Part shown: positions 1 through 63,358 of the stretch, in pieces | Layout of the letters: every line of letters starts with the position of its first letter | How positions within the stretch are numbered: position 1 is the first letter of the stretch | Virus record (IMG/VR): IMGVR_UViG_3300030109_004835 | Span: 1-63,358 of that record | Direction: 5' to 3' (one strand) | From: a virus | Lineage: Duplodnaviria; Caudoviricetes | Length of the DNA: 63,358 nucleotides | Translations under genes and position numbers: made by a program | The notes under the pieces: model-generated | What the model was told of the DNA's origin: nothing | Seen by the model: only the letters and a program-made list of their open reading frames with translations | Databases searched by the model: none

Positions 1-488
1 ATTATGCGAAGGGTGCTTGGGCTGGACTCGTAAAACGCAACATCCTCTTGAGTAGTATACCCGCGAGTCACCCTCTTCAAGACACTGAGTAACTTCTCAC
101 CCATGACTTGCCGCATAGTCTCTAAATCGTTGTCAGCAATACCTTGTTTAAGGGCAGCGCGTAACTCAGTGTTGCGGGTATATTCGTCTATAAACTCGTT
201 GAATTCTGTTTCACTAAACGTGTCAATCAGAGTGTCCAGTTCCGCAAGGGGGATTGCTTTGAACTCTGCTATGTGCCCCAGCTCCTCAGCAATAATGGAA
301 TCCATGATGCCTTTAAGGTGCAACTCGTTCTCGACTATTGCACTCTTAGCAAACAAAGCTCTCACTAGATTCTCCCGAACCACATAAATGACGGGTACTC
401 TCTCCCCGTCTTTCTCTACTACTACAGAAGCGAAGGCTTCGTCAGACCTACCTGAAAAAATACTGGGAACTTCATCTGCCGTTTCAAC
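1..488. repeat. Imperfect terminal direct repeat, copy 1 (circular overlap / strain bubble)
   Basis: Matches 62871-63358; identical over 1-77 and 421-488, about 24 substitutions between, no indels. Confidence 0.95.
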
Positions 489-3400
489 CATCGACACTGC
501 GACAGAAGGAGGGATGCTGCTCAAAGATTCTTCCACAAGTGCTTGGATTCCTGCCTCCTGTTCAGCATTCATTTCTCCTGCTTCAAGCCCGCCCTCAGAT
601 CCGAAGGGACTAAACCTTGCACCTGAGGATTTAGACTTCATAAAGTCAGGCTTCTCCACGTTGCGGTAACGCGCCCTAGCCCTATCTATTCTAGTCTCTA
701 AATCGCCAAAGAGCGTGGTTTGATCTTGGGCATTACCGATGTTGGCAAAATCTACTAGGTCGTCGAAAGCATCACGGAATTTAGCGTCTGACCGAATACC
801 AAACAAATCTAGGATTGCATCGGCTATGCGCCGGAAAAGATTCCGCTGCTCTTTTTTAGGCTGCGTACTTTTCAGTGTGCTCTGAAACGTAGAAGACGAG
901 AAGAAAGTAGCTATGAACTCTTCAAGACTCGAAAGGGCGTGGTCAAACTCAAGGTTTTCTGCGGCGGGATTCCTAGATTCTGAGGCAATCTTGTACAAAC
1001 CCTCTAACCTTTTCTTAGCCCCACGTTGTTTGGGGGTAAGCTCAGAGTCTGGTTTGGACAGAAGGTCGATAGTAAAGGCATGTAGATATTCATGGAGCAG
1101 TACGGACTCAACCCCTTGTCCGTAGAAACCGGACAGGTTGATGCTTACCATCTTTGATCCATCTGCAAACGTGGTGTAGTTACCTGCGCTCCCATCCTGT
1201 ACATCATATATAGAAAATCTGACGCGGCTAATTAAGTCTGGGTCACGTAGTAGTAACTCCGCTACCAATCGGTGCTGCCTGTTACGGCTAGACTTCTTTA
1301 TCTTATTTAAAGCGTCTATTACAGAAGACGAGTCCCCCGACACAAGGCCCAGCCTATTCACCGTGAACTGATTCTTGCGCCGATAATACTGGAGCTTCTT
1401 ACCAATAAAGATAGACGGGGCGTTATTAACTCCTAACTTAGACAACACTCCTCTGGCGACCTCCTCTGTTATCTCTGGGCGTTTCAGCATCCCTGTCTCA
1501 GAATCAATGGTCCGCAACATGGGAGAGAAATTGCTTATCAGGTTTATCGCTTCCCAATTATTTAGCACTTCTTCTTTTGCAATAGCTTCTTTCAGGCGCA
1601 GGACAAGGGGGTCGGAGGCGTGATTACGCCGCGCTACATTTAACAAATGCTCAAAGATGGGGGCAGGTTGAGTCTGTGCAAGGATGTGAGGCGGGGCCGC
1701 ATCACCTTCAACAGCATCGACAACGCGCCTCAGCGCATCAGTAAACAGTTTTTGTTTTGCTACGGTATCAGGGCCTCTTTCTCTTAGATAGTTTCTTACC
1801 CCTACGCGAATAGCCTTGGCCGCGCTTTCCATGTCGGAGGCGTTGATTGTGGCCGTCCGCCACAGAGCCTGCACTTCGTCGCCAGTAAGGTTGCCGACCC
1901 CAAATTCTTGGATCTGAGCTTCAGTAGCGATGGGTAGATCTTGCTGATCTATACCTTGTTCTGATGCCAGTTCTTGTTGGCTTGTCTCAAACTCAGTGAT
2001 AGTTTGAGAGGCGTCATAAGATATTGTAGAAATATCTGGGAATAGCAGTCCCCGTCGATCTTGGAGCCTTTTACGTGCTCTACTACCTGCATCACGTATA
2101 ATCGCATAGAGGTTCGTAACCGCAGGGTCAGAACCCTCTTTAGTATAAGCTAAGTAGTCTCTTGCTTCTTTACCAAAGAATGCGCGGATAGTTACTTCAG
2201 GCCAGTTTTCAACAAGTGTAACAGAATTGGGGGTGGTTGTAATCTTGGGGCGGTCTTTATTATCTGGGAACCCATACTTCAATAAGAACGCGGCTTTATT
2301 CTCAAGGCTATTAACTTTTTCTCCTACCGGTAGGGGCTTCCTAAACCTAGCTGTAGGTTTATAGTAAACCATACTCTCTGGTTCAATCTGTGAAGACAGT
2401 TCTTCTGTGCTTACTTCGGGGTCTATCTCATGGATGGTAACTACTTTCTGGTCGCCCTCTACTGTAACTGTCCTTTTCCTATAGGACGGGTGGTAGGTGA
2501 ATAGTTGAGTCCTTTTTTGAAGAGTAGTGTATACTTCAGCTAAAGCTAACGCCCTTAGTGTTGCGCTCTCTTCACTTGTAACCCCAACATTGAGTATTCT
2601 ACGTACCGCAAACCCGAACTCGCTAGTAGGCTTGCCTTGTACTATGCTTGAATACTCTTTAGCAAATAACGCGTTCAAAGGAGCGAGTGGCCCCCCTCTT
2701 GCCTCTTTATCTTTTTCGGAATTGAAAACAATTAGTTGCTCTCCTACGGGGTCGCCGTCTTCGTTAGTCTTACCTAGTTCTGCGTTCAGGTAGAACGAAG
2801 GGTAACCAGTGACTTCATTTATTTTTAAATGCCCTTCTAAGTAAGCAGGCAGATCCGTCAAAAGAGAGTCCCCGTAGACAGCGGACCTTTTAGTAAACTC
2901 AGCACCTTCGACAGGTATTTCAACGTCTACAGCGAAGAAAATTTTTCTGTTGGTAAGGGAGTCGAACTTTTCAACAACAGCAATGGCTGGGTTGCCAATA
3001 TACTCCCCATTTTTTATGTAAGAGTCAGGCACTCTTACTATCATCTTCTTTTTTAGAAGAGCGCGAACACTTATAGGGTTGTTATTAAAAACACCGAATG
3101 CCGTGTCAAATTCATACAATGCGCCTGACTTACGGTTAGCTTCTTTGTTTTTAAGTAAAGAGGGCTTACCCACCCCAACCATCAGTTTATTAGACTGAGC
3201 TTCTGTTAAACCAACTGTTTTAGCGGCTTTAACAGCTTCATTAACCGTTAGTACGGGATACAGTTTTTTAATACGGTTATTGATTGTCGTGTTAAGGGCA
3301 TCCCTAGTCCACTTTCTGGTCCTTGTTCCACCTTCCCCAAGCAGTGTATTTGCATTGAATGCCGCATCAGGGAAACCATAAGGTTTTTCTTTTGTTATTT

Positions 3401-6400
3401 TAACTGGAATGCCTGACCTGACATGCTGGTGTACAAGCTCTCTGATCCTGTCTCGCAAAACTCTGTTCGCATATACATCAGGGTACTCGACGTTCTCTTC
3501 AATATCTCCTTCGATACTGTCGGGATCATTCTCCGCAGTATCTTCAGATGCATTGAATTCTTCTCGAAAAACTCGTTTTGATTCTGCAAAGATGTCGCGT
3601 AGGTGGGGCTTTAGTTCTTTTTCTGTGAACGAGACGTTAGGGTCACTAAGTAATTTTTTTACCCACGCTTCAAAGTTAGCTACTTTTCGGGCTATATACG
3701 CTGCCCCAATAATAGCTAGGTCTGCAAGATCTGTCGGATCAACACCTAAATTAAAAGTAGTTCCTCTTTCGCTTCTGTCCTTTCGGCGTTGTTCAGCCAT
3801 TTGTTCCAACCTTCGGGCGACGGATTCAGTCTTAGTGATTGGTCCTTCGTCTTCTTCTAAAGACTCATCTGTTTCTTCGCTTACACTAGCTTCGTTTTCA
3901 GCTACAGCTCTAAGCACCTCTACTGCGGCTTCAGCATCTACCCCAGCTTCGGTTGCCTTCTCAGCATAGTCTTGGAGGTCTTCGTCTGATATTTTAAGTT
4001 CTTCTTGGGCGTCAGCCTCATTGCCTGCTTCGTCTATCAACGCCTGTTCTTCTGCCACTGTAGGGCTGGGAGCATAAGTAAGTGCCCCGACGACATTTGC
4101 GTGCGCTTCAGTAACCCAATAATTAAACGGTTGGTCATTAACGTCCGCTATCTGTGTTGGTTTACCGCCAAATATTAGGCCGACTGGTTCTCCCGTAGTT
4201 GGGTTTACTGTCGAAGACTTCTTAACAGTGACACCAAAAGATTTTAGTTTCTTGTTAAGAGACGTTAAAGTCAGCTCGCCCTTAGGGGGGTTATTTAAGA
4301 GCTTATTTTTTCGTTTCTCTAAAGCGTCTATAATCAAAGCATACTCTTCTTCTGTAACATCTGTAGTAGAAGATGAAGCGACGAAGGGTCTATTAGAGTA
4401 CTTAACTTTATTATCCAGTAACCTTTGGTACAAGTCGGCTGGCAGAGAAGATTTAATAGCAGCTAGTTGGTTAGTGTTCAGAGAAGGCATACTGCCCCTC
4501 CTCGCTTTTTCTGCTTCTTCTCGTGCTTTGTCTGCTTCCTCTCGTGCTTCTGCTTCTTCTGCCTCTTCTCTTTCCAGTGCTTCTACTGTAATTAGGTCTG
4601 AAGGATCTGGGTCTGGTCTAGTAAGCACTTGCGCAGAAAGATCTCTGAAGTAGTCCTCTATTTCGATAGGGGTCGGAACTTTAACCTGAGTCACAGGTAC
4701 TATCTGACCTCCTTCACGACCAGAGGTTCTGATTATTTCTTCCTCAGCAGCGGCTTCATGTTGTTCGGGAGCCGCTTTAGATACGGCGTCTACTACTTGA
4801 TCCGCTGCGTCTTTCTTGATTATGTCCCAAGCCTCGTTGATCTCCTGCATTACTTGCTCCGCTTCAGGAGCAGGATTCACATCAGGGTGATTTGTACGTA
4901 CTAAATTACGGTAAGCAGTTTGTATCTGAGCAAAAGTAGCGCCCACAGCCACGCCTAAACGGGCATAGGCTTCAACAACATTTTGGGGTTTCTCTCTTTC
5001 CTCAACAGGGGTGATCTCAGATGGTTCGGTTTGCTCTTGGGTTTGCTCTTGGGTTTGCGCGGGTTCTCGTGGGCCACTTCGGTAAAAGGGGTCGGTGGCT
5101 CTTTCTGGGTCGATGTTTGCCCTTTCCCTTTCGTCCATGATGTCCTGAACAGCATCTGCTGTCATAGGACTGTCCAGATCTCTCAATTTCTGACCGGCTT
5201 CTTTGGCGCGTTGTGTATTTATCTCCTCCGCTATTCGTGTGGCTACCTCTCTTTTAGCCGCCCTCTCACTAGTAACAGCCGACCCCCGTACGGTGCGGCC
5301 CAGTGTGTCCCTAAAGACGGGCATGCCCAATCCAAAGGCTCCTCCGTAGGCCGCCGCAATAAAAGCGCCAGTGACTCGATCTGAGAAGGGCATGTCTTCT
5401 CCAGTGAACCCCGTCTGAATGAAGCTATTGATGAACTCATCCAGTCCTTCTTCTAAAGCCTCATCAGCAAAATTTTTCCCGTGGCGAAGCATCGCATTTG
5501 TAAAGACAAAATTTTTCCACGAGCTTTTAATCCCATCCGCAGCTATTTTTGCTAAAGCCGCGTCGTAGACATCATCAGGTAATTGCCCTAGTTTCTGGAT
5601 GCTAGATCTGTGAGTAACCGTGTTGGCGACAGTGCGTTTAAGCTGTTCCCTTACTTGGGTAACACTAGCGCGACCGACGATAAAATCTTCTACACCGCCC
5701 ATTCCAATCCTGCGGAACCCAAATACAAGACTTGCTGTAACCGCAGAGGCCATGAGCCCCGCTCCCAAAGCCTTCTGATGTCTTTCTTCAGACGGCATAT
5801 CGTCAGGCAAAGCACTGTACACAGAAGCGTAAGTCATGCCTCCACTGCGGGTAGCCGCAGGTACAAGCATAGCGGGCTCCAAAACCAAACGTTTCGCTAC
5901 TACTTCGTTGTACTTTTTAATAACGTCTACAGCAGTGGCCTTTTCAAAAGCTTCTCTTGTCTCTTTATTGGCGAAGGTTTTCTTTTTCTTGCCGAACGAA
6001 GTGATTAAATCTTTGGCCAGCAGTCTGTCGGCGGCTTGCTCTGTGGTTTCTAATGCCCCTTTAACTGTTTGTCTTTTAAGGGAGCCCGCAATAATACCTG
6101 TAGCTATGCCTTTAGCAGTAAGTTTTGCCCCACTTTTAAGGGCAAGATACCCAGCCCCGCCCACACCGGTAGTCGCGGTTAAGAATGCCGTAGCCCCAAG
6201 ATCAACAGTTACAGGCGCAATCATAGACGAAAGGGTTGTGACCCATCCCACGTTGTCGCCCATCATGTTTGCCAACCGTGCTCTAGCTGCGCGTTCTCTT
6301 TGATTCTTCAGGAGAGTATCTTGAGCCAGTTTATTTGGCTCTTTTCCTCCCGCGCTTGTCGCAGCAACACCTAGCGCAGCGACCGTGTCAGTAAAAGCAT

Positions 6401-7694
6401 CTGGGATAGATCTTAGGACAGACCCCAAAGTCTCATTCCTAAACTCACTGTATTCGTTGTTCTCGAAAAACTCGTCGAAGATTTCGGCCTCTTCTTTGCC
6501 ATCAAGTAATCCTTGAGCTACTGCCTCATTCCACTTAGTGCCTAAGTATGTCCTATTTATGACTTCATTGAAGTCGTTAAACATTGCTCCGTTGAGCCTT
6601 GTTCTCCGTCGCAGTCTTAGTTTCTCTTTCTCTGGTTCAGAAAACCCTGCAATAGATTCTTCAAACTGAGATTTCTTAGCGAGAAGGTCACCATGAATAA
6701 CTTTATCCCCATAACCGTAGGTGCGGACATTGTTTGCTAGGTTCTCATCGTCGAAACTAATAGTGCCTCCTGACATGGCCATCTCGCCAGCCATGTACTC
6801 AACGGCGGCAAGGCGGTCCTTCAACGGTATAGAGGACGAATCTGGCAGTAGGTACTCAAGTTCTTCTACTACATCAGCACGAAGCTCTTCATTTAACTCT
6901 GCATTAACTCTGTCTCCAGAGTCTTTGAACCTATCGACATAACGTTTTATAGAGTTTGTAAAAGAAGTTATATCTTGGTCGCTTTTTAGGGCTGTGTTTA
7001 AAGCGAGTAAGGCATCCTCATAATGAGCCCGCTTGTGAAGTGCTACACCACTATCCCCATAAAGAGTCATCGCCTGCTGCACTCCTCGTATATCGCGGGG
7101 AGTGAGGAACCCAGCGTCCACGCTCTGTTGATAGGCTTCGTAAGTAGTCAGGCCCTCTGCCGCTGGCCCGCTTTTTAAAAAGTAACCGCCCTCAGGGTTT
7201 GCTATGCGGACAAATGGGGATGCCCCGTCTGCTCTTAGTTTGTCTACCGCGCTGTTGTAATTTCTATTTACAACGTCAGTGACATTAGCCAGTAACTCTT
7301 CTTCTTGGGCAAGAAACTCGTTAGTAGCTTCCCCGCTTCCTTTTACTTTTAAGAAAGCGTTATACGACCTGATGGCCGCACCATCTTCAGAGCTGAAATC
7401 TACAACTCCTGAACTATTGACCAGTCGTTCTTTTTCCTCAAACGTTGGTTCTGGTTCTGGCCGATTAAGTGCCTCAGAGATCTGCTCATTTTCAAGACCG
7501 GCTCCTCCTTGTTCAACAGGCGTCCGTAAAGAGTCTACTAAAGTCCCGTTTAGGAGTCGTTCTATCTCTTCGTTATAAGACCCTTCTTTAAAATACGATT
7601 CCCGTAGATGATCCGTGTGGGCGATTCTAAGGTCTACGGGGTCTGTCAGTTCGCTGGTCGCTGACCAGTCTTTGAAGTTTACAAGCTCAGGCAC
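1..7694 (-). CDS. Giant putative internal virion/ejection (large polyvalent) protein, N-terminal part; continues across the junction into 62870-59420 (~3714 aa total)
   Basis: GTG at 7694 (MPELVNFKDW...); manual translation stays open to position 1 and joins DVAFYESSPSTLRIM of the 59420 ORF in frame; contains Gly/Ala hydrophobic helices, J-domain (HPD 4881-4889) and HEYLH (1080-1094). Confidence 0.85.
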   Translation of the reverse strand, partial: MPELVNFKDWSATSELTDPVDLRIAHTDHLRESYFKEGSYNEEIERLLNGTLVDSLRTPVEQGGAGLENEQISEALNRPEPEPTFEEKERLVNSSGVVDFSSEDGAAIRSYNAFLKVKGSGEATNEFLAQEEELLANVTDVVNRNYNSAVDKLRADGASPFVRIANPEGGYFLKSGPAAEGLTTYEAYQQSVDAGFLTPRDIRGVQQAMTLYGDSGVALHKRAHYEDALLALNTALKSDQDITSFTNSIKRYVDRFKDSGDRVNAELNEELRADVVEELEYLLPDSSSIPLKDRLAAVEYMAGEMAMSGGTISFDDENLANNVRTYGYGDKVIHGDLLAKKSQFEESIAGFSEPEKEKLRLRRRTRLNGAMFNDFNEVINRTYLGTKWNEAVAQGLLDGKEEAEIFDEFFENNEYSEFRNETLGSVLRSIPDAFTDTVAALGVAATSAGGKEPNKLAQDTLLKNQRERAARARLANMMGDNVGWVTTLSSMIAPVTVDLGATAFLTATTGVGGAGYLALKSGAKLTAKGIATGIIAGSLKRQTVKGALETTEQAADRLLAKDLITSFGKKKKTFANKETREAFEKATAVDVIKKYNEVVAKRLVLEPAMLVPAATRSGGMTYASVYSALPDDMPSEERHQKALGAGLMASAVTASLVFGFRRIGMGGVEDFIVGRASVTQVREQLKRTVANTVTHRSSIQKLGQLPDDVYDAALAKIAADGIKSSWKNFVFTNAMLRHGKNFADEALEEGLDEFINSFIQTGFTGEDMPFSDRVTGAFIAAAYGGAFGLGMPVFRDTLGRTVRGSAVTSERAAKREVATRIAEEINTQRAKEAGQKLRDLDSPMTADAVQDIMDERERANIDPERATDPFYRSGPREPAQTQEQTQEQTEPSEITPVEEREKPQNVVEAYARLGVAVGATFAQIQTAYRNLVRTNHPDVNPAPEAEQVMQEINEAWDIIKKDAADQVVDAVSKAAPEQHEAAAEEEIIRTSGREGGQIVPVTQVKVPTPIEIEDYFRDLSAQVLTRPDPDPSDLITVEALEREEAEEAEAREEADKAREEAEKARRGSMPSLNTNQLAAIKSSLPADLYQRLLDNKVKYSNRPFVASSSTTDVTEEEYALIIDALEKRKNKLLNNPPKGELTLTSLNKKLKSFGVTVKKSSTVNPTTGEPVGLIFGGKPTQIADVNDQPFNYWVTEAHANVVGALTYAPSPTVAEEQALIDEAGNEADAQEELKISDEDLQDYAEKATEAGVDAEAAVEVLRAVAENEASVSEETDESLEEDEGPITKTESVARRLEQMAEQRRKDRSERGTTFNLGVDPTDLADLAIIGAAYIARKVANFEAWVKKLLSDPNVSFTEKELKPHLRDIFAESKRVFREEFNASEDTAENDPDSIEGDIEENVEYPDVYANRVLRDRIRELVHQHVRSGIPVKITKEKPYGFPDAAFNANTLLGEGGTRTRKWTRDALNTTINNRIKKLYPVLTVNEAVKAAKTVGLTEAQSNKLMVGVGKPSLLKNKEANRKSGALYEFDTAFGVFNNNPISVRALLKKKMIVRVPDSYIKNGEYIGNPAIAVVEKFDSLTNRKIFFAVDVEIPVEGAEFTKRSAVYGDSLLTDLPAYLEGHLKINEVTGYPSFYLNAELGKTNEDGDPVGEQLIVFNSEKDKEARGGPLAPLNALFAKEYSSIVQGKPTSEFGFAVRRILNVGVTSEESATLRALALAEVYTTLQKRTQLFTYHPSYRKRTVTVEGDQKVVTIHEIDPEVSTEELSSQIEPESMVYYKPTARFRKPLPVGEKVNSLENKAAFLLKYGFPDNKDRPKITTTPNSVTLVENWPEVTIRAFFGKEARDYLAYTKEGSDPAVTNLYAIIRDAGSRARKRLQDRRGLLFPDISTISYDASQTITEFETSQQELASEQGIDQQDLPIATEAQIQEFGVGNLTGDEVQALWRTATINASDMESAAKAIRVGVRNYLRERGPDTVAKQKLFTDALRRVVDAVEGDAAPPHILAQTQPAPIFEHLLNVARRNHASDPLVLRLKEAIAKEEVLNNWEAINLISNFSPMLRTIDSETGMLKRPEITEEVARGVLSKLGVNNAPSIFIGKKLQYYRRKNQFTVNRLGLVSGDSSSVIDALNKIKKSSRNRQHRLVAELLLRDPDLISRVRFSIYDVQDGSAGNYTTFADGSKMVSINLSGFYGQGVESVLLHEYLHAFTIDLLSKPDSELTPKQRGAKKRLEGLYKIASESRNPAAENLEFDHALSSLEEFIATFFSSSTFQSTLKSTQPKKEQRNLFRRIADAILDLFGIRSDAKFRDAFDDLVDFANIGNAQDQTTLFGDLETRIDRARARYRNVEKPDFMKSKSSGARFSPFGSEGGLEAGEMNAEQEAGIQALVEESLSSIPPSVAVSMVETADEVPSIFSGRSDEAFASVVVEKDGERVPVIYVVRENLVRALFAKSAIVENELHLKGIMDSIIAEELGHIAEFKAIPLAELDTLIDTFSETEFNEFIDEYTRNTELRAALKQGIADNDLETMRQVMGEKLLSVLKRVTRGYTTQEDVAFYESSPSTLRI

Positions 7695-7723: not shown

Positions 7724-8806
7724 TTATTCAGGGGAGGGCAACATTGCCCTTCGGATATCTCGTTCAGCTCTAGTGTCGGTCAGATCAAGGCGTTCGTCAT
7801 CCACATCCCCTCCGTAAAGGTCGTTTCTTCTAAACCGTAAGGATTTGCGGTACTCTTTAAACATCTCCATGTCAGAGTTAGGGTCTGATTCTGGGTATTT
7901 TTCTTCGATTTCTTTTTCGGTCATTGATGTACTACGCGCCAGATTCTCTACTAGCCTTTGACGATCCAGCGATTTAAACCGCGCCGGTATTTTGTTCTGA
8001 GCCATAAACGCAGCTTTGGCACCTGCATCTCCTGTAGCACTAATCCGGTCCCATTGATTTTGAACGTCGTCGCTCAATGTAGGTAAGACATCCTCAAAAG
8101 AGGATTCAGTTACACTAAGACCTTGTGCAAAGGCAGTGTCACTTTGGAGTTGCTTCTTTTTTGCATCTTGGAATTCTTCTGCCTTCTTTAACTGGTCGAT
8201 GTTTTTCTTCTCTCCGCTGAGGACATCTATACCTTCATCGAAGGTCATCTCTCCACGCAGAAGTTTTCCACCGGCAACATTAGCCTCTGGGCTAGGCAAC
8301 TGTAAAAGTCTATTAGCGAGTGTAGAAACACCTTCTTCTAGTTTACCCTCTTTAGCTTCTATATCAGCACGGGTCTTTGTCTGGTTAAGGGCTGTATTAT
8401 ACGCTTGGGCAATCAACGGTACATTAAGCAGCGCCTGAGGATTTTTTCTCCCCAGATCTTGGATCTGGTTGCGTTGTTCAAGAGGTGGCGCATCACTATC
8501 TAAAATGGCGTCGATACGATCTAAAAAAGCAGGGTCGTTATACTGCCGTTGTAGTTCTTGTTTTTCTTTCGCATCTTTAAAAGCGAGTGCAGAAGTCTTA
8601 AAAGCCATGTCCTGAGCTTGCAAGCGCATCATGTTATTCTGCATAGTCATCATGCGGTCCTGTAAAGGAGCAATGTTCTGTGCATAATTAGCCTGCATGC
8701 TCCTGTAATCAGAAGCACGCATCCCTCCTTCAGGGAAGAAGTCCCCCATGCCGGAAGCGACCTTGCTGGTCTGGATTACGTCGTCGCTATTAAAGTCTAG
8801 AGCCAT
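7724..8806 (-). CDS. Hypothetical helical protein, putative internal virion protein
   Basis: 360-aa ORF directly upstream of the giant gene; coiled-coil-like; function from position only. Confidence 0.6.
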   Translation of the reverse strand: MALDFNSDDVIQTSKVASGMGDFFPEGGMRASDYRSMQANYAQNIAPLQDRMMTMQNNMMRLQAQDMAFKTSALAFKDAKEKQELQRQYNDPAFLDRIDAILDSDAPPLEQRNQIQDLGRKNPQALLNVPLIAQAYNTALNQTKTRADIEAKEGKLEEGVSTLANRLLQLPSPEANVAGGKLLRGEMTFDEGIDVLSGEKKNIDQLKKAEEFQDAKKKQLQSDTAFAQGLSVTESSFEDVLPTLSDDVQNQWDRISATGDAGAKAAFMAQNKIPARFKSLDRQRLVENLARSTSMTEKEIEEKYPESDPNSDMEMFKEYRKSLRFRRNDLYGGDVDDERLDLTDTRAERDIRRAMLPSPE

Positions 8807-10064
8807 AGGTGTTTCTTGAAGATTGTTGGATATTAGAATCTGGAGAACCTGCTATCCCAATGTTGGATCTCATTTTTTTGTAGTCCTCCATCATCTTTTG
8901 CATATCAGCCATAAGCTGTGCTCCTTGTCTGCGTTCTGCTTCTTCGCGAGCGCGGCGTTCAGGAGTGGAGATATTGCTCCCTTCAGTTAGCCTTTGTCTT
9001 TCGGCTGCGCCGAACATTTTTTGGGCCTCGCCAGAGGCTCCTTTTCTCAACAACCTGCGGCCTGCTCTATTCATAGCCCCTGAGAAAGAACCTAACTCGC
9101 GGGGCGTCTTCCTCAAAGAGCTTCCTGCTCCTAAGCGTTGGCTAGAACTATTTTTATTTTTGACTGCTGCGAGGAACCCTTCGTCAGAAGCAAAGTCTTT
9201 TCTCCTTAACCCAGAGGTTACTAAGTTTTTTGAGAGCGGGGCACTTTTCCCCTTTCTCCCTAACTCAGTAAAATACTGTGCTATCGAACCCAGCGCACCA
9301 AATTTAGGCCCACCATCTTCTTTCGTCTTAGCTGGAGCAGCCGCCTGCATTGCTGCACGGGTAGCATCACTGTCGATAGTAGGCGTCCGCGCATTGATCT
9401 CTGCAAGCTGGGCTTCGGCCCTTTCTTGTCTTTCCCTAAAGCTTGTAAGCAAGTTCTCCCTGTTAAAAGCCTTCATATCTGATCTTTCAGAGGCGTTTAG
9501 TCTCCCATTACCGTCACTGTCAAATGCAGTAATATCAGCTTCGGTGGTTCCGAAAGCTTTTAGTCTTGCCTCTTCTTGCCGATCTGGTGAAAAGCTTTGT
9601 TCCCTTTCCTGTGGTGGGCCGAAAGCTGCGAGTCTTGCCGCCTCTTTTTTATCCGGCGAAAAGCTTCCTGTTTCAGACTTCCCCATGCTCCCAAAAAACT
9701 TGGCTTTAGGAGTGAAGTCTTCTTTGTCAGATTCTTCAGTTCTTCGTCTGCCGCTTGCTGTAAAGCCGGGAGCATCTACCCCCTCTATTTTCTCACCTTC
9801 TTTTTTATCTTCATATTTAAAATCAACTTCAGGTGCTTTAACAGGTATAGAAGGTTGAGTTGACTCAACGACTGCTTTGCCTACGTCGCCAAAAAATTCA
9901 CCCGTTGCTTTTCCCGCTGCACCTATAGCTTTACCGGTGTCTGTGACTACCTCCTCCAACGGTTTTATAGCACCTGACCCTTGGGGCCGAAGCACCCTCA
10001 CGTTTTTGCCGCCAGCCGGTTGCTTCTTCTTCTTCTTTTTATCGTCTTTGTCTCCGTTAGCCAT
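8790..10064 (-). CDS. Low-complexity putative internal virion protein with one EF-hand-like loop
   Basis: Likely ATG at 10064 (MANGDKDD) just after the upstream stop; contains DSDGNGRLNASE. Confidence 0.6.
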   Translation of the reverse strand: MANGDKDDKKKKKKQPAGGKNVRVLRPQGSGAIKPLEEVVTDTGKAIGAAGKATGEFFGDVGKAVVESTQPSIPVKAPEVDFKYEDKKEGEKIEGVDAPGFTASGRRRTEESDKEDFTPKAKFFGSMGKSETGSFSPDKKEAARLAAFGPPQEREQSFSPDRQEEARLKAFGTTEADITAFDSDGNGRLNASERSDMKAFNRENLLTSFRERQERAEAQLAEINARTPTIDSDATRAAMQAAAPAKTKEDGGPKFGALGSIAQYFTELGRKGKSAPLSKNLVTSGLRRKDFASDEGFLAAVKNKNSSSQRLGAGSSLRKTPRELGSFSGAMNRAGRRLLRKGASGEAQKMFGAAERQRLTEGSNISTPERRAREEAERRQGAQLMADMQKMMEDYKKMRSNIGIAGSPDSNIQQSSRNTYGSRL

Positions 10065-10066
10065 GA

Positions 10067-10360
10067 TTACCAAAGGTGTTTGCAAGCCCAGTAACGGGCA
10101 GTGGTTTTATCTTTTGCAGTAGCGCAGTTGTGCCTCGCTCTAAAATTAGCTCGACGTTTAGGATCTTTATGTTTTCTAAAATCGCTGTAATCGCGGTGCC
10201 CGTATGAGACTTTCTTAATTTTGTCCCCTTGCTTCCCCAGCACTACGAATTTTTTCTTCGAGCCTTTCGGGGCTCGCTTAGGCTTATTGAAGCCAGCATA
10301 GGTCTCCCCCATATACTGTATTCTACCTGAAGGTAGGCGCTTAAATCTTTTGGCAGCCAC
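10067..10360 (-). CDS. Small basic protein (DUF5754-like family of aquatic phages/NCLDV)
   Basis: KKVSYG..YSDFRKHKDPKRRANFRARH...ARYWACKHLW pattern. Confidence 0.65.
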   Translation of the reverse strand: MAAKRFKRLPSGRIQYMGETYAGFNKPKRAPKGSKKKFVVLGKQGDKIKKVSYGHRDYSDFRKHKDPKRRANFRARHNCATAKDKTTARYWACKHLW

Positions 10361-10412: not shown

Positions 10413-10508
10413 GACCTGAACTCAAAAACTCCTCTCCTAAAACACATGGTACTGATGATAAGATCATTGGTACCAAGGGTATTTGAGGAAAACTTTTTGA
10501 GTTCGGTC
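10413..10508. repeat. Long imperfect palindrome, copy 1
   Basis: GAACTCAAAAA...TGGTACTGATGAT-AAG-ATCATTGGTACCA...TTTTTGAGTTC; homologous to 48945-49030. Confidence 0.85.
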
Positions 10509-12294
10509 ATGAGATCAGACCTGTTTCGGAGTTCTCCAAAGCTGCCCCCAACGACTGGATTGTAACCCGTTTCCTGAACCCCGTACCCTGATCCTCTTTC
10601 GGTGGATCGACTGCCACGAGACCTAGACGCTGGCGAGCACAGTCGAGAGCAAGGAATGCGGCGTCGGCCAAGTCGGGGCTCCTACCAAACCGTGCCTTGA
10701 AGTCTGGCTTGGATTCAATTTTCACTTTCAAGGATCCAGTTTTAATCATGTCGTAGTTCCTAGCACACATCTCTTGGGCGAGGTCAGAGCCAATGCCGTA
10801 GATCTGTTTAGTTCTCATAAGTTCCTTACCCACAAACCATAACTCAGATACACGGTTCGTGTAGAGTTCTTCACCAGTGAGCTGGCTATTCATAGATACC
10901 CGTTTATCAGAAGCCCTACCCCCAAAAGTAACACGCATAAAATTAGGTGACCATTCTCCTGCCAAGACATCACAGAAAGGAGCCCCCGCTCCAGTGGAGT
11001 CAACCGCTACATTCTCTGGGCTGACCCCCTTTCTTTTACAGTGATCCACTATCTGCTGCACAATCTGGTAAGTTCGCGGGACTGCCTTGTTAGTAGCATC
11101 GTCATTGAGGTGGATTGAATCGGTAAACTGACAAACATATTGCCCATTTCTAGCGTAGCCTACCTCAGCGATAGATAAGATCGTCCGGTCACCGCCATTT
11201 GTGAATGCAGGGTCAACACCCGCGACTACTGTAGGTTTGCCCTCCCATTCGACCTTACCCATTGAGCCACATTTAGTTAGCTCAGATTCTGAATAAATCC
11301 CTGTCGTTTCGTCAGAGTCAAAAAAGACCGCCCTGATCATCCTCATATACCCCCGCGATTCCGGCCCCAACAGAATCCTGTCTTCTTCTAGTTTTTCCGC
11401 AGTCGGGAGCCAAGGATACTTTGTTTCCCCCAATAAAACGTTTGGGCTCCGCTCTCCGTCTAGTCTTATATACTTACCGCCCCACTTGGTGTCCCATTCG
11501 TCTGCCGTCTGTATGTCCACCGACTCCCAACCCTCTTTAGGCTCCGACCACACACCAAAAGCGTCGAACCGTGAGTTCGGGTTAGCCATTCCAATCATCT
11601 GGAAATGGGGGTTTTTTGACAGGTTAGTTAATCCCGCCTGAAGAATTGCTTCGGAAAGCTCCGAAAGCTCATCCCCAATCAAAATAACTCGTTTCTGTTT
11701 AATACCAATGAACTTACCTACCGCTTCGCGGGTCTTGCTTTTCTCAGCCGCAATCAAAGACAGGCCCGCTCTCTCGATAAGATTATCTTTTTCATCTATA
11801 TACGCAGCGTTTCCAATTGAATCCCGAATCTTGATTGGTGCCCCGTCAATCACTGACAAGAGCGATATCACTGAACCCCAAATCCTTTTTCGTGCCTCAC
11901 GCAACGTGGTTGAAGTCATGAGGATCAGGGTATCTCTGGGCTGAGACAACCAATTAACTATACCCCACGCCGCCATAGTGTGAGATTTTCCCGACGAAGC
12001 TGACCCGCCCACTGACAAATATTTATTGTGTATCGCTGAACGAATCATCTGTTCTGCCCAAGGGTGACGAATCATCATGGGTTCAGGTAAGTCGTCGTGA
12101 TTCCACAGCTCGTCACATATTCTCCAGAAATAGTACTCGCGTGCTAGAGCACGGGGGTGGTGCGCGAACCCATAAAGCAATGCCGTCAATAAACTGGTCG
12201 GAGGTATTAACAAACCCCCTACGTCCATCTTTTTTGTTTTCGGGTCGATGCGCGGCTCTATAACGCGCTTGCGTTTGGTTGGGTCGGACGGCAT
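10507..12294 (-). CDS. terL: Terminase large subunit
   Basis: Walker A GGSASSGKS, Walker B ILIGDE, nuclease GVDPA and GRSPDLADA; likely start MPSDP at 12294. Confidence 0.92.
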   Translation of the reverse strand: MPSDPTKRKRVIEPRIDPKTKKMDVGGLLIPPTSLLTALLYGFAHHPRALAREYYFWRICDELWNHDDLPEPMMIRHPWAEQMIRSAIHNKYLSVGGSASSGKSHTMAAWGIVNWLSQPRDTLILMTSTTLREARKRIWGSVISLLSVIDGAPIKIRDSIGNAAYIDEKDNLIERAGLSLIAAEKSKTREAVGKFIGIKQKRVILIGDELSELSEAILQAGLTNLSKNPHFQMIGMANPNSRFDAFGVWSEPKEGWESVDIQTADEWDTKWGGKYIRLDGERSPNVLLGETKYPWLPTAEKLEEDRILLGPESRGYMRMIRAVFFDSDETTGIYSESELTKCGSMGKVEWEGKPTVVAGVDPAFTNGGDRTILSIAEVGYARNGQYVCQFTDSIHLNDDATNKAVPRTYQIVQQIVDHCKRKGVSPENVAVDSTGAGAPFCDVLAGEWSPNFMRVTFGGRASDKRVSMNSQLTGEELYTNRVSELWFVGKELMRTKQIYGIGSDLAQEMCARNYDMIKTGSLKVKIESKPDFKARFGRSPDLADAAFLALDCARQRLGLVAVDPPKEDQGTGFRKRVTIQSLGAALENSETGLIS

Positions 12295-12327
12295 GATGGA
12301 ACTAGACACTAATCTACTTATTTTAGG

Positions 12328-12930
12328 ATGGGGGACAAGAACGAAGGCAACACCGAAATAGTGCAAAGAGCTTTAGAGATGAACGCACAGGGTATGACCA
12401 ACGCCGCTATCGGCAGACATCTTGGTGTCCATCAGGGTACTGTGAGGAGGTGGTTCCGAAAATTAGGGCTGCCCCCTAAAAAAGCGGGGTTCACGTTACC
12501 TACCGTCACGCCCGACAAAGACGAGCTTAAAGAGAAACTGGAAGTAAATCTTTCAGACATGACTCAGCAAGCAGCTACTGAAGCCCGCCTAGCTGCTTCA
12601 GAAAAAGAAGATCAAGTGCTCGCAGAAATAGCGGAGTCCCAAAACTCACCTTCTGACAAGTATCAACATTACGTTGCCGCTGCTGGGATCAAGTTACTTA
12701 GGGACAGTATGAGCATGGTGCGGGGGCCGAGGACTATCCGAGAGATGTCAGAGCTGGATCAGCTTATTAGAAGGAACCTTGGCCTAAACGCCAAAACAGG
12801 TGGAGGGGGCGGGCGAATGCAAATAGATATTTCAATTTTAAATAATTCTACAGACAAGAATGGGAGCAAACGGGTATCCGATAAACCCATTATAGACGTA
12901 GAAGAAACTAAGAAAGATGAGCTGGAGTGA
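12328..12930 (+). CDS. HTH DNA-binding protein, possible terminase small subunit
   Basis: N-terminal HTH (MTNAAIGRHLGVHQGTVRRW), helical middle, C-terminal IIDVE tail; adjacent to terL. Confidence 0.6.
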   Translation: MGDKNEGNTEIVQRALEMNAQGMTNAAIGRHLGVHQGTVRRWFRKLGLPPKKAGFTLPTVTPDKDELKEKLEVNLSDMTQQAATEARLAASEKEDQVLAEIAESQNSPSDKYQHYVAAAGIKLLRDSMSMVRGPRTIREMSELDQLIRRNLGLNAKTGGGGGRMQIDISILNNSTDKNGSKRVSDKPIIDVEETKKDELE

Positions 12931-59186: not shown

Positions 59187-59487
59187 GGCACTACGCCAAG
59201 TCTTGATGCGGTATAGCCGCAAAGACTGGGACTGGATATGTGACTATGGTACCCGAACCAAATGGTGCAAGCTAGGTCTGCTAATCGCTAAACGCGAATT
59301 AGATATGACATGGCGGGAAGCTGGAGCCTGTTTCGGTTTAAAGCCGGAACAGGCTTCCAGAGCCGCACGTAAGTTTGAGGATAAGGTATTTGAGGAACCT
59401 GCTCTTTTCGATATGATGACTAATCTATCGTTTCGAGTGCTTGAATCCTTGGGCCAGACAAGCGGATCTCATCAAGGGCGATCCTAA
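59122..59487 (+). CDS. HTH protein (DnaA C-terminal-like); start uncertain
   Basis: LIAKRELDMTWREAGACFGLKPEQASRAARKFE. Confidence 0.5.
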   Translation: MPAIRWTKATALIHMDVANKTKALRQVLMRYSRKDWDWICDYGTRTKWCKLGLLIAKRELDMTWREAGACFGLKPEQASRAARKFEDKVFEEPALFDMMTNLSFRVLESLGQTSGSHQGRS

Positions 59488-62400
59488 GTCTTTGCCTACC
59501 TACCGCGCCATCAGGGGTTAAGCCTATTACTTGTTCTATAAATGGTGTTGGGAACACATCTCTTTCCCTCCGCCCATTCACAATGTAATTCTGTCTGCGC
59601 TTGCCCATGCCTAGAGACTTCTCACTCATCACTCTTCTAGCTTGCCGTGGTGTTAGCCCCAGCCCTTGTGCTCCCAAGTAGGTAGTGTAGATACGCTGGT
59701 CTACTTCGCGCCTCACCTTCATCCATTTGCGGATAGACCTGCGAATCTGTCCTTCGGACAACTGCCCTTTTGATTTGAGTATGTTGCGTAGTGAAGAAGC
59801 ACGGTTGCGTTCGTCCCGCGCTCTCTGTAGGTATCGGAGAAAGTGGGTCTCAGGATCATACTTGTATGGCTTAACGGGGACTATCTCCCCTATCAGAAGG
59901 GCCTTTGCTGATTTAGCAGGGTCAGGAGATGCTCCTGCATACAGAGCCTGATAAGCGGCTTGTGCTAATTTAGTAGGTGTCCTAGGGGCGTAAGCCTCTG
60001 AAAGGACGTAGCCTAACTTCTTAGCAAAGCCCACAGCCCCCTCTCCTTTTTCCGCTATCGGGCCTCCTGTGTCAGACCTCACATTCCTAGACACATCCAC
60101 TACAGAACTAAGGAATATATTCTCATCCATGAATGTCTGGGCCACGCTTCCGAATGCTTCTTCAAACCCTCTTTCAACATTACCTCTATACGCATGCTCC
60201 GAGAAACGGAGTAGAGGATCAACGCTGATAGCAAAAGGATTAACAAAAGTCATGTCCCATGAGCTAAGCTCATTACTCTTTAGACCTAATAGGGACTGAG
60301 GATTATACCAGAAAGTATTATACCTCTTATACTCTGGCGACGACCCTCGTAGAAGTTCATCTTCTTCTTCGCCAATTCCCACCAAGTGAGCGAGTAATGT
60401 TGGGAGACCAGCACTCACTCCAAGGATAACAGTGGACACTCCACTTATGCGCCTTACGCCTCTACTCCTTACGACAGGGTTGGTGCTTTTTAGCTCTTGT
60501 TTAGCCAGCTTGAAAGTGTTTTCTAGTATGCGGAAGACTTCGGTTTTGAACCGCAAGAACGGGGTAACGACAGAAGCGTACTCGCTCCTACCTATCTTCT
60601 CAACTAGGTGGTAAGCGTCTGCATACGACTGTGATGTACGACGAACCTTTTGGGCCGCAAGATACTTAAGGTCGTAATCGGAGAGGCTCCGGTATCCTGC
60701 TGGCGCGTTCGCATCAATAGAATCTGTGTTGTTATCTATGTCCCACTGCTTTGCTTTCAACAGGTTCTCTTTCTCCAGCTCGTAGTACCCGATCTTGTAG
60801 AAGGCATCAACCGATTGTGAAAGAGCCTGAAGTCTTTCCATGACAGGCTTTACTACTTTGTCTGAAAGTCCCTTCGATTTCTCAACGATCTTATTTAAAG
60901 ATTCAATTTCTTTGAGAACAGAAGACACATTCTTAGGCTTCTTGAGCAGGTCTCTAATCAAAGAAGAATAAAGATCCTGCCCGATAACATTCAATCCCGT
61001 CAGCTCTGCATAATATTCGTCGAAAGCCTTGGGGTCTTTTAGTGAGCGACCAATATCTGTGGACCTTGTAGCTATTTTAGCCATAGACACAGGGCCAAAA
61101 CCTTGGGCTGGTGCGAAGAAGAACAAGTTACCGAGAACGTTTCTCAGGTAAAACGTTACAGAGCCTAAAGTTTTAGCGGTAAGAGCGGCCCCCGTTAAGA
61201 GCCTAAGGCCTTCACCGAACGACGCGAGTTTCTGTTTAGATGTAGACAAGTTAGACTCTGCAACATCTGGCGAGTACATACGTTTCAGATCATCAAACAT
61301 ATCCTCACGGATATAGTAGTTATATGTTTCGTCGTATGTTGACTCCAGCTCTGTGGTCGCTTGCACTTTATCCCCATAAACGTATGCCTCTCCTGTCCGC
61401 ATATTGACGTAAGACTCTGGGTCTAGTTCGGGACGGTTAGTTAGCTGGGCATGGGTGAATACGAATGCGTCTTCATCGGTGGCACTTTTCGGAGCCCCTA
61501 GTTCGGCTATGTTATTGAAGTAAGCCTGTCTAGCTGTCATCTCTGTGACAACAGTAAGTGAGCGTGCCAGATTATTTATACCTGCTTCAGGGCCATAGAC
61601 GCCCATTAGTTTCTGCAATGGAGGCGGTACTTGTTGCCTTCGTCTCAGGTTATTTAGCAAAGACCTGCCTACTCCTTTTGGTAGACGATACTCTTCGCTC
61701 TTCGCCCGTTTCTCCATAGCCTTCAGATAGGTAGACATCATAGCATGGATCGGATCCCGACCTGTATCTGAAGCCTGCTCTAGCTCTTGCTTTGATTTTT
61801 CCAACGACTCTTCTTCAGTCATTGACTCCCCTTCATTTCTTGCCTTCGCACGGATTTTCTTAGCTTGGGTCTTGATCCACTGCCGACGCATATACTCGTA
61901 GGCTTCAGTGAACGCTTCCGTTGTCTTATCCGACATGATCCTATCTCTGAATCCTTCCTCTTCAAAGACCCTGTACTGGCGTGTGAGATAAACACCCACT
62001 TGGCTTTCTACTTTGGCCATTACTTTACCTTCAAGGCCGAAGGTCTTTTTCATTACTAAACTAAAGGCGTCTAGTAACAAACGTAGCTCTAATACAGAGT
62101 CAGCTAAATCAGGAGCTATTTGTCGGATGTTCTCCCGCGCGGCATCAATATCCTTGCGGACTTCTTCTTGTAGCCTCTCGCGTTCTTTACGCATCGGGGC
62201 GACCACTAACTCTCTGTATTTAGCTTTGATGTTTTCTCTAGTGAACCCAGCAGCTTCTGCTTCGCCCGCATCAGTTCTTGCTTTTAAGTCTTTCCTCCAT
62301 GACCAGTAAGACTCCCTAAGATCCTGCCTGAACTCAGGGTCTACTGTTACATTTTCGCTACTGCCCGTTGCTCTCGAAATGAGCGCGTCGTCTATTTGAG

Positions 62401-63358
62401 GATATCTTTCCCGTACTTTTTGGAAAGCGGCAAGCTTGGCATTGCTAAGTTTCTCAGACGCGTTTATAAATGCCCGCTCTTTTTTCTTTATCTCCGTAAT
62501 TCTAGGATCCGTGTCCCCAAACTTCAGAGCGCTCATACCTGTATAGCCTTGGTATTTGCCCCTAGAAAACACGCCTAGAGGCAGCTCCAAGGTATCAAAC
62601 ATTCCTTGGAACCTAGCGATCACTTGCTCTGGGGTAGTGTCATCACCGATGTCGTTAAGTGAATTATCGAAACGACGGGTTATAACATCAAACCCAGCAT
62701 TAGGGTTACGCGGGTCAAAGGGCATGTGTCTGGCGCGAGCGGCACCTCCATTGGCCAAGAACCTAAGTTCATGAGCCATGCGGTTTATCATAACCGCCAA
62801 CTCTGGGTTATCTTTCTTGAGGTTATATCGAGCAGACATCCTGCGGAATACCCCTGCGATGTACCGGAGCATTATGCGAAGGGTGCTTGGGCTGGACTCG
62901 TAAAACGCAACATCCTCTTGAGTAGTATACCCGCGAGTCACCCTCTTTAAGATGCTGAGTAACTTCTCGCCCATGACTTGCTGCATAGTCTCTAAATCAT
63001 TGTCAGCAATACCTTGTTTAAGGGCGGCGCGTAAATCAGGGTTGCGGGTATACTCGTCTACAAACTCGTTGAATTCTGTCGCACTAAACGTTTCAATCAG
63101 AGTGTTCAGTTCCGCGAGGGGGATTGCTTTGAACTCTGCTATGTGCCCCAGCTCCTCAGCAATAATAGAATCCATGATGCCTTTAAGGTGCAACTCGTTC
63201 TCCACTATTGCACTCTTAGCAAACAAGCCTCGCACTAGATTCTCTCGAACTACATAAATGACGGGTACTCTCTCCCCGTCTTTCTCTACGACTACAGAAG
63301 CGAAGGCTTCGTCAGACCTACCTGAAAAAATACTGGGAACTTCATCTGCCGTTTCAAC
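59420..63358 (-). CDS. Giant putative internal virion/ejection protein, C-terminal part
   Basis: Frame open to window end and continuous with 1-7694; helical C-terminal region (FYLRNVLGN, PFLRFKTE). Confidence 0.85.
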   Translation of the reverse strand, partial: VETADEVPSIFSGRSDEAFASVVVEKDGERVPVIYVVRENLVRGLFAKSAIVENELHLKGIMDSIIAEELGHIAEFKAIPLAELNTLIETFSATEFNEFVDEYTRNPDLRAALKQGIADNDLETMQQVMGEKLLSILKRVTRGYTTQEDVAFYESSPSTLRIMLRYIAGVFRRMSARYNLKKDNPELAVMINRMAHELRFLANGGAARARHMPFDPRNPNAGFDVITRRFDNSLNDIGDDTTPEQVIARFQGMFDTLELPLGVFSRGKYQGYTGMSALKFGDTDPRITEIKKKERAFINASEKLSNAKLAAFQKVRERYPQIDDALISRATGSSENVTVDPEFRQDLRESYWSWRKDLKARTDAGEAEAAGFTRENIKAKYRELVVAPMRKERERLQEEVRKDIDAARENIRQIAPDLADSVLELRLLLDAFSLVMKKTFGLEGKVMAKVESQVGVYLTRQYRVFEEEGFRDRIMSDKTTEAFTEAYEYMRRQWIKTQAKKIRAKARNEGESMTEEESLEKSKQELEQASDTGRDPIHAMMSTYLKAMEKRAKSEEYRLPKGVGRSLLNNLRRRQQVPPPLQKLMGVYGPEAGINNLARSLTVVTEMTARQAYFNNIAELGAPKSATDEDAFVFTHAQLTNRPELDPESYVNMRTGEAYVYGDKVQATTELESTYDETYNYYIREDMFDDLKRMYSPDVAESNLSTSKQKLASFGEGLRLLTGAALTAKTLGSVTFYLRNVLGNLFFFAPAQGFGPVSMAKIATRSTDIGRSLKDPKAFDEYYAELTGLNVIGQDLYSSLIRDLLKKPKNVSSVLKEIESLNKIVEKSKGLSDKVVKPVMERLQALSQSVDAFYKIGYYELEKENLLKAKQWDIDNNTDSIDANAPAGYRSLSDYDLKYLAAQKVRRTSQSYADAYHLVEKIGRSEYASVVTPFLRFKTEVFRILENTFKLAKQELKSTNPVVRSRGVRRISGVSTVILGVSAGLPTLLAHLVGIGEEEDELLRGSSPEYKRYNTFWYNPQSLLGLKSNELSSWDMTFVNPFAISVDPLLRFSEHAYRGNVERGFEEAFGSVAQTFMDENIFLSSVVDVSRNVRSDTGGPIAEKGEGAVGFAKKLGYVLSEAYAPRTPTKLAQAAYQALYAGASPDPAKSAKALLIGEIVPVKPYKYDPETHFLRYLQRARDERNRASSLRNILKSKGQLSEGQIRRSIRKWMKVRREVDQRIYTTYLGAQGLGLTPRQARRVMSEKSLGMGKRRQNYIVNGRRERDVFPTPFIEQVIGLTPDGAVGRQRLRIALDEIRLSGPRIQALETID
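62871..63358. repeat. Imperfect terminal direct repeat, copy 2
   Basis: Matches 1-488. Confidence 0.95.

Follow-up and report, generated by a model that had tools for sequence, protein, structure and literature searches.

The question raised by this locus is why a phage should place a J-domain inside a protein of several thousand residues that appears to belong to the ejected proteins of the virion. A J-domain, through its HPD tripeptide, triggers ATP hydrolysis by Hsp70, and Hsp70 then closes on a nearby unfolded segment. The DNA concerned, IMG/VR virus record IMGVR_UViG_3300030109_004835, is a complete record of 63,358 bases that we analysed over its full length (hereafter the window) and that belongs to a phage by its gene content. 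Its giant protein carries a genuine J-domain with the HPD intact, a class-C J-domain that is inserted in the flexible tether linking a hydrophobic N-terminal module to the ~2,750 residues that follow. This arrangement suggests that the phage borrows host DnaK to take in or refold the giant protein. The explanation that we tentatively favour, at somewhat less than an even chance, is that the J-domain recruits DnaK in cis, capturing and refolding the ejected chain at the membrane.

The giant gene and its J-domain

The giant gene is read from the minus strand and starts with GTG at 7694. Its first 2,564 codons occupy 1..7694, and the open reading frame (ORF; 7694..3) is still open where it exits the start of the record. 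Positions 1-488 repeat 62871-63358 with 95% identity, and because the record ends overlap in this way, the ORF wraps round and resumes in the same frame in 62870..59420 (stop codon at 59420-59422), giving a total of 3,714 aa. The last 162 residues of the first protein piece are identical to the first 162 of the second, and a related contig (L004) has the same giant gene uninterrupted, with 3,854 aa. The wrapped protein agrees with the preliminary description of the locus, made from the sequence alone, in having ~2,750 aa after the J-domain. As the end repeat is 95% and not 100% identical, the nominally 'linear' record is a wrapped assembly that probably combines two close variants and that splits the giant gene.

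The same description had aligned a peptide to the DnaJ pattern. That peptide is present on the minus strand, its HPD (aa 936-938), between helices II and III, lies at 4881..4889 as claimed, and the likeness to DnaJ is borne out by the Pfam model PF00226 (DnaJ), which matches aa 909-963 (4806..4970, minus strand) of the giant ORF at E = 1.5e-11 with 44.7 bits, the curated cut-off being 27.8 bits. A 94-aa excerpt searched alone scores 50.8 bits against PF00226, and a six-frame search of the whole record returns exactly one J-domain, at 4806-4970 on the minus strand (50.9 bits). Using phmmer, 36 J-domain chains are matched among the PDB sequences at E <= 0.1, with DnaJ2 of T. thermophilus as the best of them (4j7z; E = 7.5e-9) and with the two HPDs aligned. 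The fold can be recognised as well: in an AlphaFold2 (AF2) model of aa 1-1000, built on a 32-sequence alignment and with a mean predicted local distance difference test (pLDDT) score of 69, aa 901-980 reach a pLDDT of 87-93. Foldseek aligns the modelled domain to the J-domains of CbpA and DnaJ (3ucs and 4j7z; probability 1.00), with a root mean square deviation of 1.4 A over 52 columns for 3ucs_D.

No G/F region, CXXCXGXG zinc finger or DnaJ C-terminal domain was detected. PF00226 is the sole Pfam family reported in the two pieces of the giant protein (2,564 aa and 1,312 aa), and hence the architecture is class-C, i.e. J-domain-only, and not that of a class A or class B DnaJ. Moreover, the 63-kb record contains no Hsp70 gene, so that any partner of the J-domain must be that of the host. 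A complex prediction pairing the J-domain (aa 895-985) with residues 1-605 of E. coli DnaK and ATP, in which E. coli DnaK stands in for that of the host, speaks neither for nor against binding, as a control with DnaK replaced scored higher.

The J-domain at the position of the gp50 tether

The N-terminal module (aa 1-860; 5115..7694, minus strand) is conserved in 139 of 150 listed representatives of the family. According to the AF2 model, it consists of a confidently modelled helical globule (aa 1-410) and a low-confidence helical region (aa 440-860) that carries hydrophobic Gly/Ala-rich segments. It is followed by a disordered linker rich in Gln, Glu and Pro (aa 861-903; 4986..5114, minus strand) without secondary structure and with pLDDT < 50, in agreement with the earlier statement that the J-domain comes after hydrophobic segments by way of a flexible linker. 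The stretches that flank the J-domain on both sides are disordered and either acidic or Pro-rich. As to the segments themselves, hydrophobicity was measured on the Kyte-Doolittle scale over 19 residues with a threshold of 1.4. Both Gly/Ala-rich segments named before, aa 499-518 (6141..6200) and aa 776-794 (5313..5369; 1.42), are found at the positions claimed. However, the first of them falls below the threshold, and the strongest hydrophobic peak ahead of the J-domain (aa 642-660; 5715..5771; 1.73) had not been listed.

A similar order of parts is described for gp50, the virion RNA polymerase of coliphage N4 (Schitoviridae). In gp50, helices predicted to span the membrane lie at residues 224-278 of the N-terminal domain, which enters nanodiscs, residues 907-1007 form a flexible linker that tethers the cytoplasmic part to this membrane-associated domain, and the C1 domain (residues 2124-2375) bears an HExxH motif (PMC13434306). 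The polymerase and C-terminal domain of gp50 are proposed to refold in the cytoplasm, with the linker as membrane anchor (PMC13434306). The two proteins are alike in size (about 3,500-3,700 aa), in an N-terminal part of ~900 aa that is helical and includes hydrophobic helices, and in a long linker near aa 900-1000 (PMC13434306, PMC5512222). Given the hydrophobic region at aa 440-860, the J-domain at 909-963 and HEYLH at 2201, the J-domain occupies the position of the gp50 tether. By hhalign the N-terminal module aligns with gp50 aa 227-506 collinearly over 234 columns (probability 28.6%, E = 6e-4), with a probability of 7.4% when gp50 is entered as a single sequence, and aa 776-794 are weakly aligned to a Gly-rich segment of gp50. 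These alignments are suggestive of homology between the two N-terminal modules.

The structural comparison adds no relative of the module. When the aa 1-1000 model was compared with PDB and BFVD by Foldseek, no match reached E <= 0.001, the local matches of the J-domain alone being reliable, and candidate matches to tape-measure, polyvalent and PhiM1 proteins were rejected with TM-scores near 0.1.

Kinship with ejected virion proteins

The family to which the giant protein belongs comprises proteins of 2,400-6,000 aa. One homology search gave 19 proteins, aa 1-1000 searched against a set of 1.84 billion proteins gave 1,323 matches at E <= 0.001 (126 at E <= 1e-10), and IMG/VR yielded 107 relatives, from which 80 loci were kept. 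Three modules are conserved, namely the N-terminal ~860 aa, a block with an HExxH motif and the C-terminal ~1,060 aa, with variable regions between them. The variable regions of relatives carry ART-PolyVal, GNAT and DUF7178 domains, which are found elsewhere than in the region of the J-domain.

The nature of the protein is indicated by the zincin-like HExxH block (aa 2098-2317; 744..1403, minus strand). Its HEYLH (aa 2201-2205, at 1080-1094) and a downstream Glu are conserved, 15 of the 19 homologues share HE..H, and conservation runs on after the block to aa 2564. Searched against the whole PDB sequence set, a profile of the block made from 37 sequences matches an 'Internal virion protein' (9sfn_G; E = 2.8e-8) and the tetrameric ejection protein gp48 of PhiM1 (8vb2_A; E = 1.7e-6), the latter being the counterpart of T7 gp16 and seen in the capsid as a part of the ejectosome (PMC11440229). 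The profile also finds the HExxH region of all nine N4-like virion RNA polymerases (vRNAPs) at the expected place, in six of them with a domain E < 1e-3, and reversed vRNAP sequences, used as a control, give no match at that region. Furthermore, hhalign of a 96-protein family alignment against the nine vRNAPs pairs aa 2191-2292 with gp50 aa 2225-2348 (probability 94.2%, E = 1.2e-7); gp50 has HELVH at 2228 where the giant protein has HEYLH at 2201, and its C1 domain is homologous by profile. The term 'ejection-type' that had been given to the protein is thus upheld by homology to proteins ejected from virions, with the match confined to the HExxH block. In the PhiM1 and 9sfn proteins, from T7-like/phiKMV-like podoviruses, this block is the shared part and ~135-160 residues align; these proteins differ in being 1,263-1,337 aa long, about one third of the giant protein's size, and in having no J-domain, and profiles of the N- and C-terminal modules match no PDB sequence.

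An AF2 model of aa 2081-2564 (pLDDT 78.5) shows the core of a zincin, in which the HExxH helix comes after a sheet of three strands. A second sheet-plus-helix unit of the same type surrounds EELGH (aa 2470-2474; 273..287, minus strand), whose Glu and His are invariant in the 37 sequences, and judging from the model this unit may be a degenerate second zincin. Foldseek of the HExxH-region model gave no match at E <= 0.001, and its top matches, which are weak, were to anthrax lethal factor (protease domain; probability 0.85) and to a putative zinc peptidase. Lethal factor is also the structural relative that Iyer et al. gave for the HExxH region of gp50, the domain being defined there as MPTase (PMC5512222). 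In a sub-group of relatives (P0017-P0021; alignment rows P0018 and P0020), Glu replaces the first His of the motif (EEYVH), and going by this substitution the peptidase of the sub-group may be inactive or use another ligand.

The C-terminal module (~1,063 aa; 59423..62611, minus strand) occurs in all 81 related loci and includes one strongly hydrophobic segment (Kyte-Doolittle 1.93). Sequence and profile searches found no PDB or Pfam relative of it, and gp50 likewise has a large helical C-terminal part without known relatives. In the isolate Pseudoalteromonas phage vB_Pun_Y3 (L003, OR779980; 210-13584), a 3,421-aa 'DdrB-like ParB' protein is encoded ahead of a 1,027-aa 'ADP-ribosyltransferase'. 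Part of the C-terminal module recurs in the latter at a weak level (24% identity over 317 aa, E = 6e-7), and from this similarity the pair may represent a protein of this kind in split form.

Unlike gp50, the giant protein has no detected RNA polymerase domain: hhalign gave no match to gp50 aa 1000-2100 and no polymerase family was found in Pfam or PHROGs, which give no match to the giant protein besides the J-domain. In addition, phmmer with gp50 against the giant-protein family found none at E < 0.01, and on these hhalign and phmmer results a hidden N4-type polymerase was rejected. The central region (aa 1100-2098) has five detectable homologues (six rows, one of them a duplicate), and with so few for comparison a very divergent polymerase is possible there. 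A search of the ESM Atlas with aa 1050-2564 gave no match scoring at least 0.9; the LPD23 cluster found at 0.87 is a lead only.

Synteny also bears on the nature of the protein. The gene for the large terminase subunit (10507..12366, minus strand; PHROG 2, E = 1.2e-16) heads the same-strand gene run. Of 81 related loci, 76 have a large terminase no more than 6 kb upstream of the giant gene and on its strand, and the other five gave no terminase match. The order differs from that of N4, in that the giant gene follows the terminase whereas the gp50 gene ends the structural block. From homology and synteny together we infer, with good support, that the giant protein is a virion protein of the ejection or polyvalent type.

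A gene in the terminase operon would be expected to give many copies late in infection, and this suits a reading in which the J-domain is a folding aid in the producing cell, recruiting DnaK in cis, during synthesis, to the 2,750 residues that come after it, or keeping the chain in a loosely folded state fit for packaging, with no role in entry. The same facts can be cited for it, i.e. a real J-domain, the absence of a phage Hsp70, the position in the N-terminal third and the disordered flanks. The J-domain leaves the ribosome after about 960 residues, and nothing has to be assumed about entry order or topology. However, relatives of equal size, up to 5,946 aa, fold without a J-domain in more than 95% of cases, and the site of the insert, at the tether after the hydrophobic module and not at the N-terminus, is left unexplained. 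We consider such an aid rather unlikely as the explanation; it is compatible with action at entry, and the two are not mutually exclusive.

The family also resembles the polyvalent proteins, which are giant and multidomain, are encoded beside packaging genes, and have a zincin hub, variable cargo and predicted delivery with the DNA (PMC5512222). The size of >2,000 aa with unrelated domains that marks these proteins is found here in 3,714 aa with a J-domain, an HExxH block and terminal modules, the linkage to packaging genes in the terminase of the 76 loci, and the zincin hub in HEYLH, the AF2 core and the homology to gp50, with Foldseek support that is weak. None of the Pfam LPD families of polyvalent proteins matches the giant protein. 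Iyer et al. (2017) name neither DnaJ nor Hsp70 in their main text, and their separate domain inventory could list the J-domain (PMC5512222).

These resemblances, namely the zincin hub and the ART-PolyVal and GNAT domains of relatives, would fit a J-domain that acts in trans as a polyvalent-type effector of host take-over, perhaps freed by the zincin-like peptidase, and that perturbs the DnaK network as Rki does. Its cargo-like placement in a variable region between linkers points the same way, and Rki is a precedent for a phage J-protein acting on DnaK and sigma-32 (PMC3486835). However, by analogy with N4 few molecules would be delivered per infection, too few for an abundant chaperone unless the action is local, Pfam recognises no client-binding or regulatory domain beside the J-domain, and cleavage by the zincin-like domain is putative for every member. 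A trans-acting effector seems unlikely to us.

Distribution and maintenance of the J-domain

The giant genes of the window (3-7694, minus strand) and of its closest relative, L004 (2375-13939, plus strand), form a recombination mosaic, with 90-98% DNA identity at aa ~630-1050 and aa >2400. Synonymous differences amount to about 0-3% where the identity of these regions is at its peak and to ~50% elsewhere in the giant gene. Because L004 is a mosaic, the HPD of P0005, which is kept, is not independent evidence of constraint. More diverged copies are found in two other proteins. P0023, 54% identical overall and 51% in the J core, has kept the HPD, and so has P0162, a fragment that begins at the J-domain, with 44% identity in the J core and then 36% against aa 1410-2045. 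Across lineages that are 44-51% identical in the domain, the HPD and its flanking consensus (AYR.L, HPDV, IN.A) are retained, and NHPDVNP is kept in all 16 cluster (population) variants that are long enough. In P0006, a further relative with 57% identity in the N-terminal module, the corresponding position is taken by a J-like stretch whose J core is 16% identical (phmmer E = 2.5e-6 when the 19 homologues were searched, 2.2e-5 for the larger set).

The preliminary description had made its proposal depend on conservation of the HPD in relatives, and the outcome is divided: the motif stands in P0023 and P0162 and is replaced in P0006. From this pattern we conclude that the J-domain was probably gained in one sub-clade, maintained in several lineages and decayed in at least one.

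That P0006 tolerates the loss of the signalling motif at this position is the point in favour of a decaying or structural insert, in which the J fold would be a spacer in the tether without DnaK signalling. However, the HPD and its consensus are kept across the lineages of 44-51% identity and in the 16 assessable variants, and we regard a mere spacer as highly improbable.

Several observations weigh against recruitment of DnaK at entry. With our own hidden Markov model, built from 27 J-domain segments and applied at E <= 1e-3, a J-domain was found in none of the 80 IMG/VR loci in any frame, L004 apart, which has one. Of the 150 listed representatives, the 139 with the N-terminal module include 109 that extend at least 200 aa past it, and among these a J-domain is present in one (P0023) and absent in 108. 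As the domain is missing from nearly all relatives, ejection and refolding in the family must work without it. Moreover, the one HPD replacement, in P0006, removes the signalling motif from one relative, and the 94-98% identity between the window and L004 in the J region, with ~0-3% synonymous differences, reflects recombination and not constraint. The remaining points concern the protein itself: before the J-domain only aa 642-660 and aa 776-794 reach the hydrophobicity threshold, the alignment of the N-terminal module to that of gp50 is weak, and helix II of the J-domain presumably has fewer basic residues than that of E. coli DnaJ.

The claim that the J-domain is the entry engine of these proteins consequently fails for the family as a whole. 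It had been put forward as a membrane-tethered ratchet of J-domain and DnaK, similar to Sec63 and Pam18, that draws in the rest of the chain and perhaps also the genome by its leading end. The order of hydrophobic module, linker and J-domain would suit the exit of a translocon and matches the gp50 linker. However, with nearly all relatives lacking the J-domain and one lacking the HPD, a ratchet of this type is not obligatory for the family, and we know of no action of DnaK on DNA. Passage and refolding of giant ejected proteins are called open in the 2026 N4 paper (PMC13434306), which leaves room for such a device; an obligatory ratchet is nevertheless very unlikely in our judgement.

Outside the family, a survey of giant proteins by J-domain words left two of 76 candidates, both from the window's own clade, on an E-value scale that is harsh for an 86-aa query. 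The scan of 1.84 billion proteins also matched a metagenomic protein (P0136; 679 aa) with six tandem J-domains, each with an HPD, and several others with two or three J-domains, all unrelated to the giant family.

A possible role at entry

Taken together, the geometry of the giant protein and its nature as an ejection protein are better founded than the preliminary description could know, and the J-domain is an optional add-on, so that the original proposal is partly supported. Recruitment of DnaK in cis, which we tentatively prefer, treats the J-domain as an accessory improvement in one sub-clade and not as the entry engine of the family. The giant protein would be carried in the capsid and leave it by way of the tail in a loosely folded state, N-terminal module first. 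This module would remain at the inner membrane, and the small tethered J-domain would arrive early in the cytoplasm. There the HPD would activate the ATPase of host DnaK, and DnaK would clamp emerging unfolded segments of the same chain; capture in this manner would stop back-sliding and aggregation and aid the refolding of the large downstream domains. Packaging, entry order, membrane association, topology, stimulation of DnaK and the identity of the client are what we infer here.

Two considerations favour action in cis. The unfolded segments closest to the J-domain are those of its own 3,714-aa chain, and if delivery is like that of N4, where about 4 vRNAP copies are present per capsid (PMC13434306), the few molecules delivered would be suited to local action and not to titrating the DnaK pool of the cell. 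A stronger form of the proposal, in which the tethered J-domain at the cytoplasmic mouth of the ejectosome would make DnaK a ratchet and refolding machine that imports a protein of 3,700 residues, appears to us quite unlikely.

Comparison with known J-proteins

J-domains held at a membrane are familiar from Sec63, Pam18/Tim14 and E. coli DjlA, where they give local Hsp70 action on emerging chains. These are resident cellular proteins, whereas here the J-domain would arrive inside the translocated substrate. Phages are known to encode J-proteins of their own. Rki (gp057w) of the T4-like phage RB43 has a J-domain with an HPD that works with host DnaK and stabilises sigma-32 (PMC3486835), and jumbo phages have DnaJ/CbpA-like proteins that are stand-alone HPD co-chaperones for host DnaK (PMC7824862). 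Unlike the giant protein, both are small, separately expressed and cytoplasmic.

When the J-domain was searched by tblastn against 50,697 phage records, 25 records matched, of which ten are unannotated at the match. The 15 annotated matches are DnaJ/CbpA-type chaperones in eight cases and hypothetical proteins in seven, and none is annotated as a virion or giant protein. For phage vB_PunP_Y3, a DnaJ has been published as ORF2, an auxiliary gene. The 'DnaJ domain in DNA polymerase' of the HMO-2011 type was considered and set aside, as it is a zinc-finger central domain and not a J-domain, and the polymerase of the window has no CXXCXGXG.

Compared with N4 gp50, a Pfam J-domain match is found in the giant protein of the window only, and the main text of the 2026 N4 structure paper makes no mention of chaperones or DnaK (PMC13434306). 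A full-text literature search, covering main texts and abstracts, found no published fusion of a J-domain with an ejection protein in phages. This suggests that the J-domain in an ejection or polyvalent protein is the new element, class-C J-proteins and relatives of N4 gp50 and T7 gp16 being known.

Neighbouring genes and related phages

Besides the large terminase, the record encodes a family-A DNA polymerase, a helicase, a PD-(D/E)XK exonuclease, a primase-like protein, endolysins and tail-fibre-like proteins. In the family, about two fast-evolving genes separate the giant gene from the terminase; those of the window (7724..10085, minus strand) encode a basic, low-complexity protein of 431 aa and a helical one of 360 aa, each recognisable in only eight of the 81 related loci. 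By their position these products could be further internal or ejection proteins. A homology to N4 gp51 and gp52 was tried and rejected, the best hhalign probability being 8.7% over 18 columns.

A 1,408-aa protein (36210-40436, minus strand) contains three concanavalin-A-like lectin (Laminin_G_3) stretches and one pentaxin-like stretch, and adjoins a tail-fibre-like protein of 1,826 aa. The two are likely receptor-binding proteins.

The related loci L015-L094 form an uncultured group with the terminase, two genes and a giant protein of 3,400-5,946 aa in that order, often on contigs of 55-65 kb. Their terminases are closely related, and the family-A polymerase of the window is found in 25 of the loci. 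The giant protein and the terminase, searched by tblastn against the 50,697 phage records, matched no isolate except for one weak match in the C-terminal part.

Implications for phage entry

How proteins of 1,000-3,500 residues pass a tail channel of ~30-35 A and refold is regarded as unresolved in the 2026 N4 paper (PMC13434306). A J-domain in the tether of an ejected protein points to host DnaK as a participant in entry or refolding, because the HPD is kept in diverged lineages and the domain lies where the chain would first meet the cytoplasm. Among the cargo domains carried by polyvalent and ejection proteins there is now a co-chaperone module. The analysis also delineates a large uncultured group of ~60-kb phages, with 107 relatives in IMG/VR, that have a terminase-linked, gp50-related giant protein with no detectable polymerase. 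If import by a DnaK ratchet were true, it would be the first example of a bacterium taking in a protein with the help of Hsp70, and viruses would have their own equivalent of Sec63 and Pam18, with the J-domain carried by the substrate.

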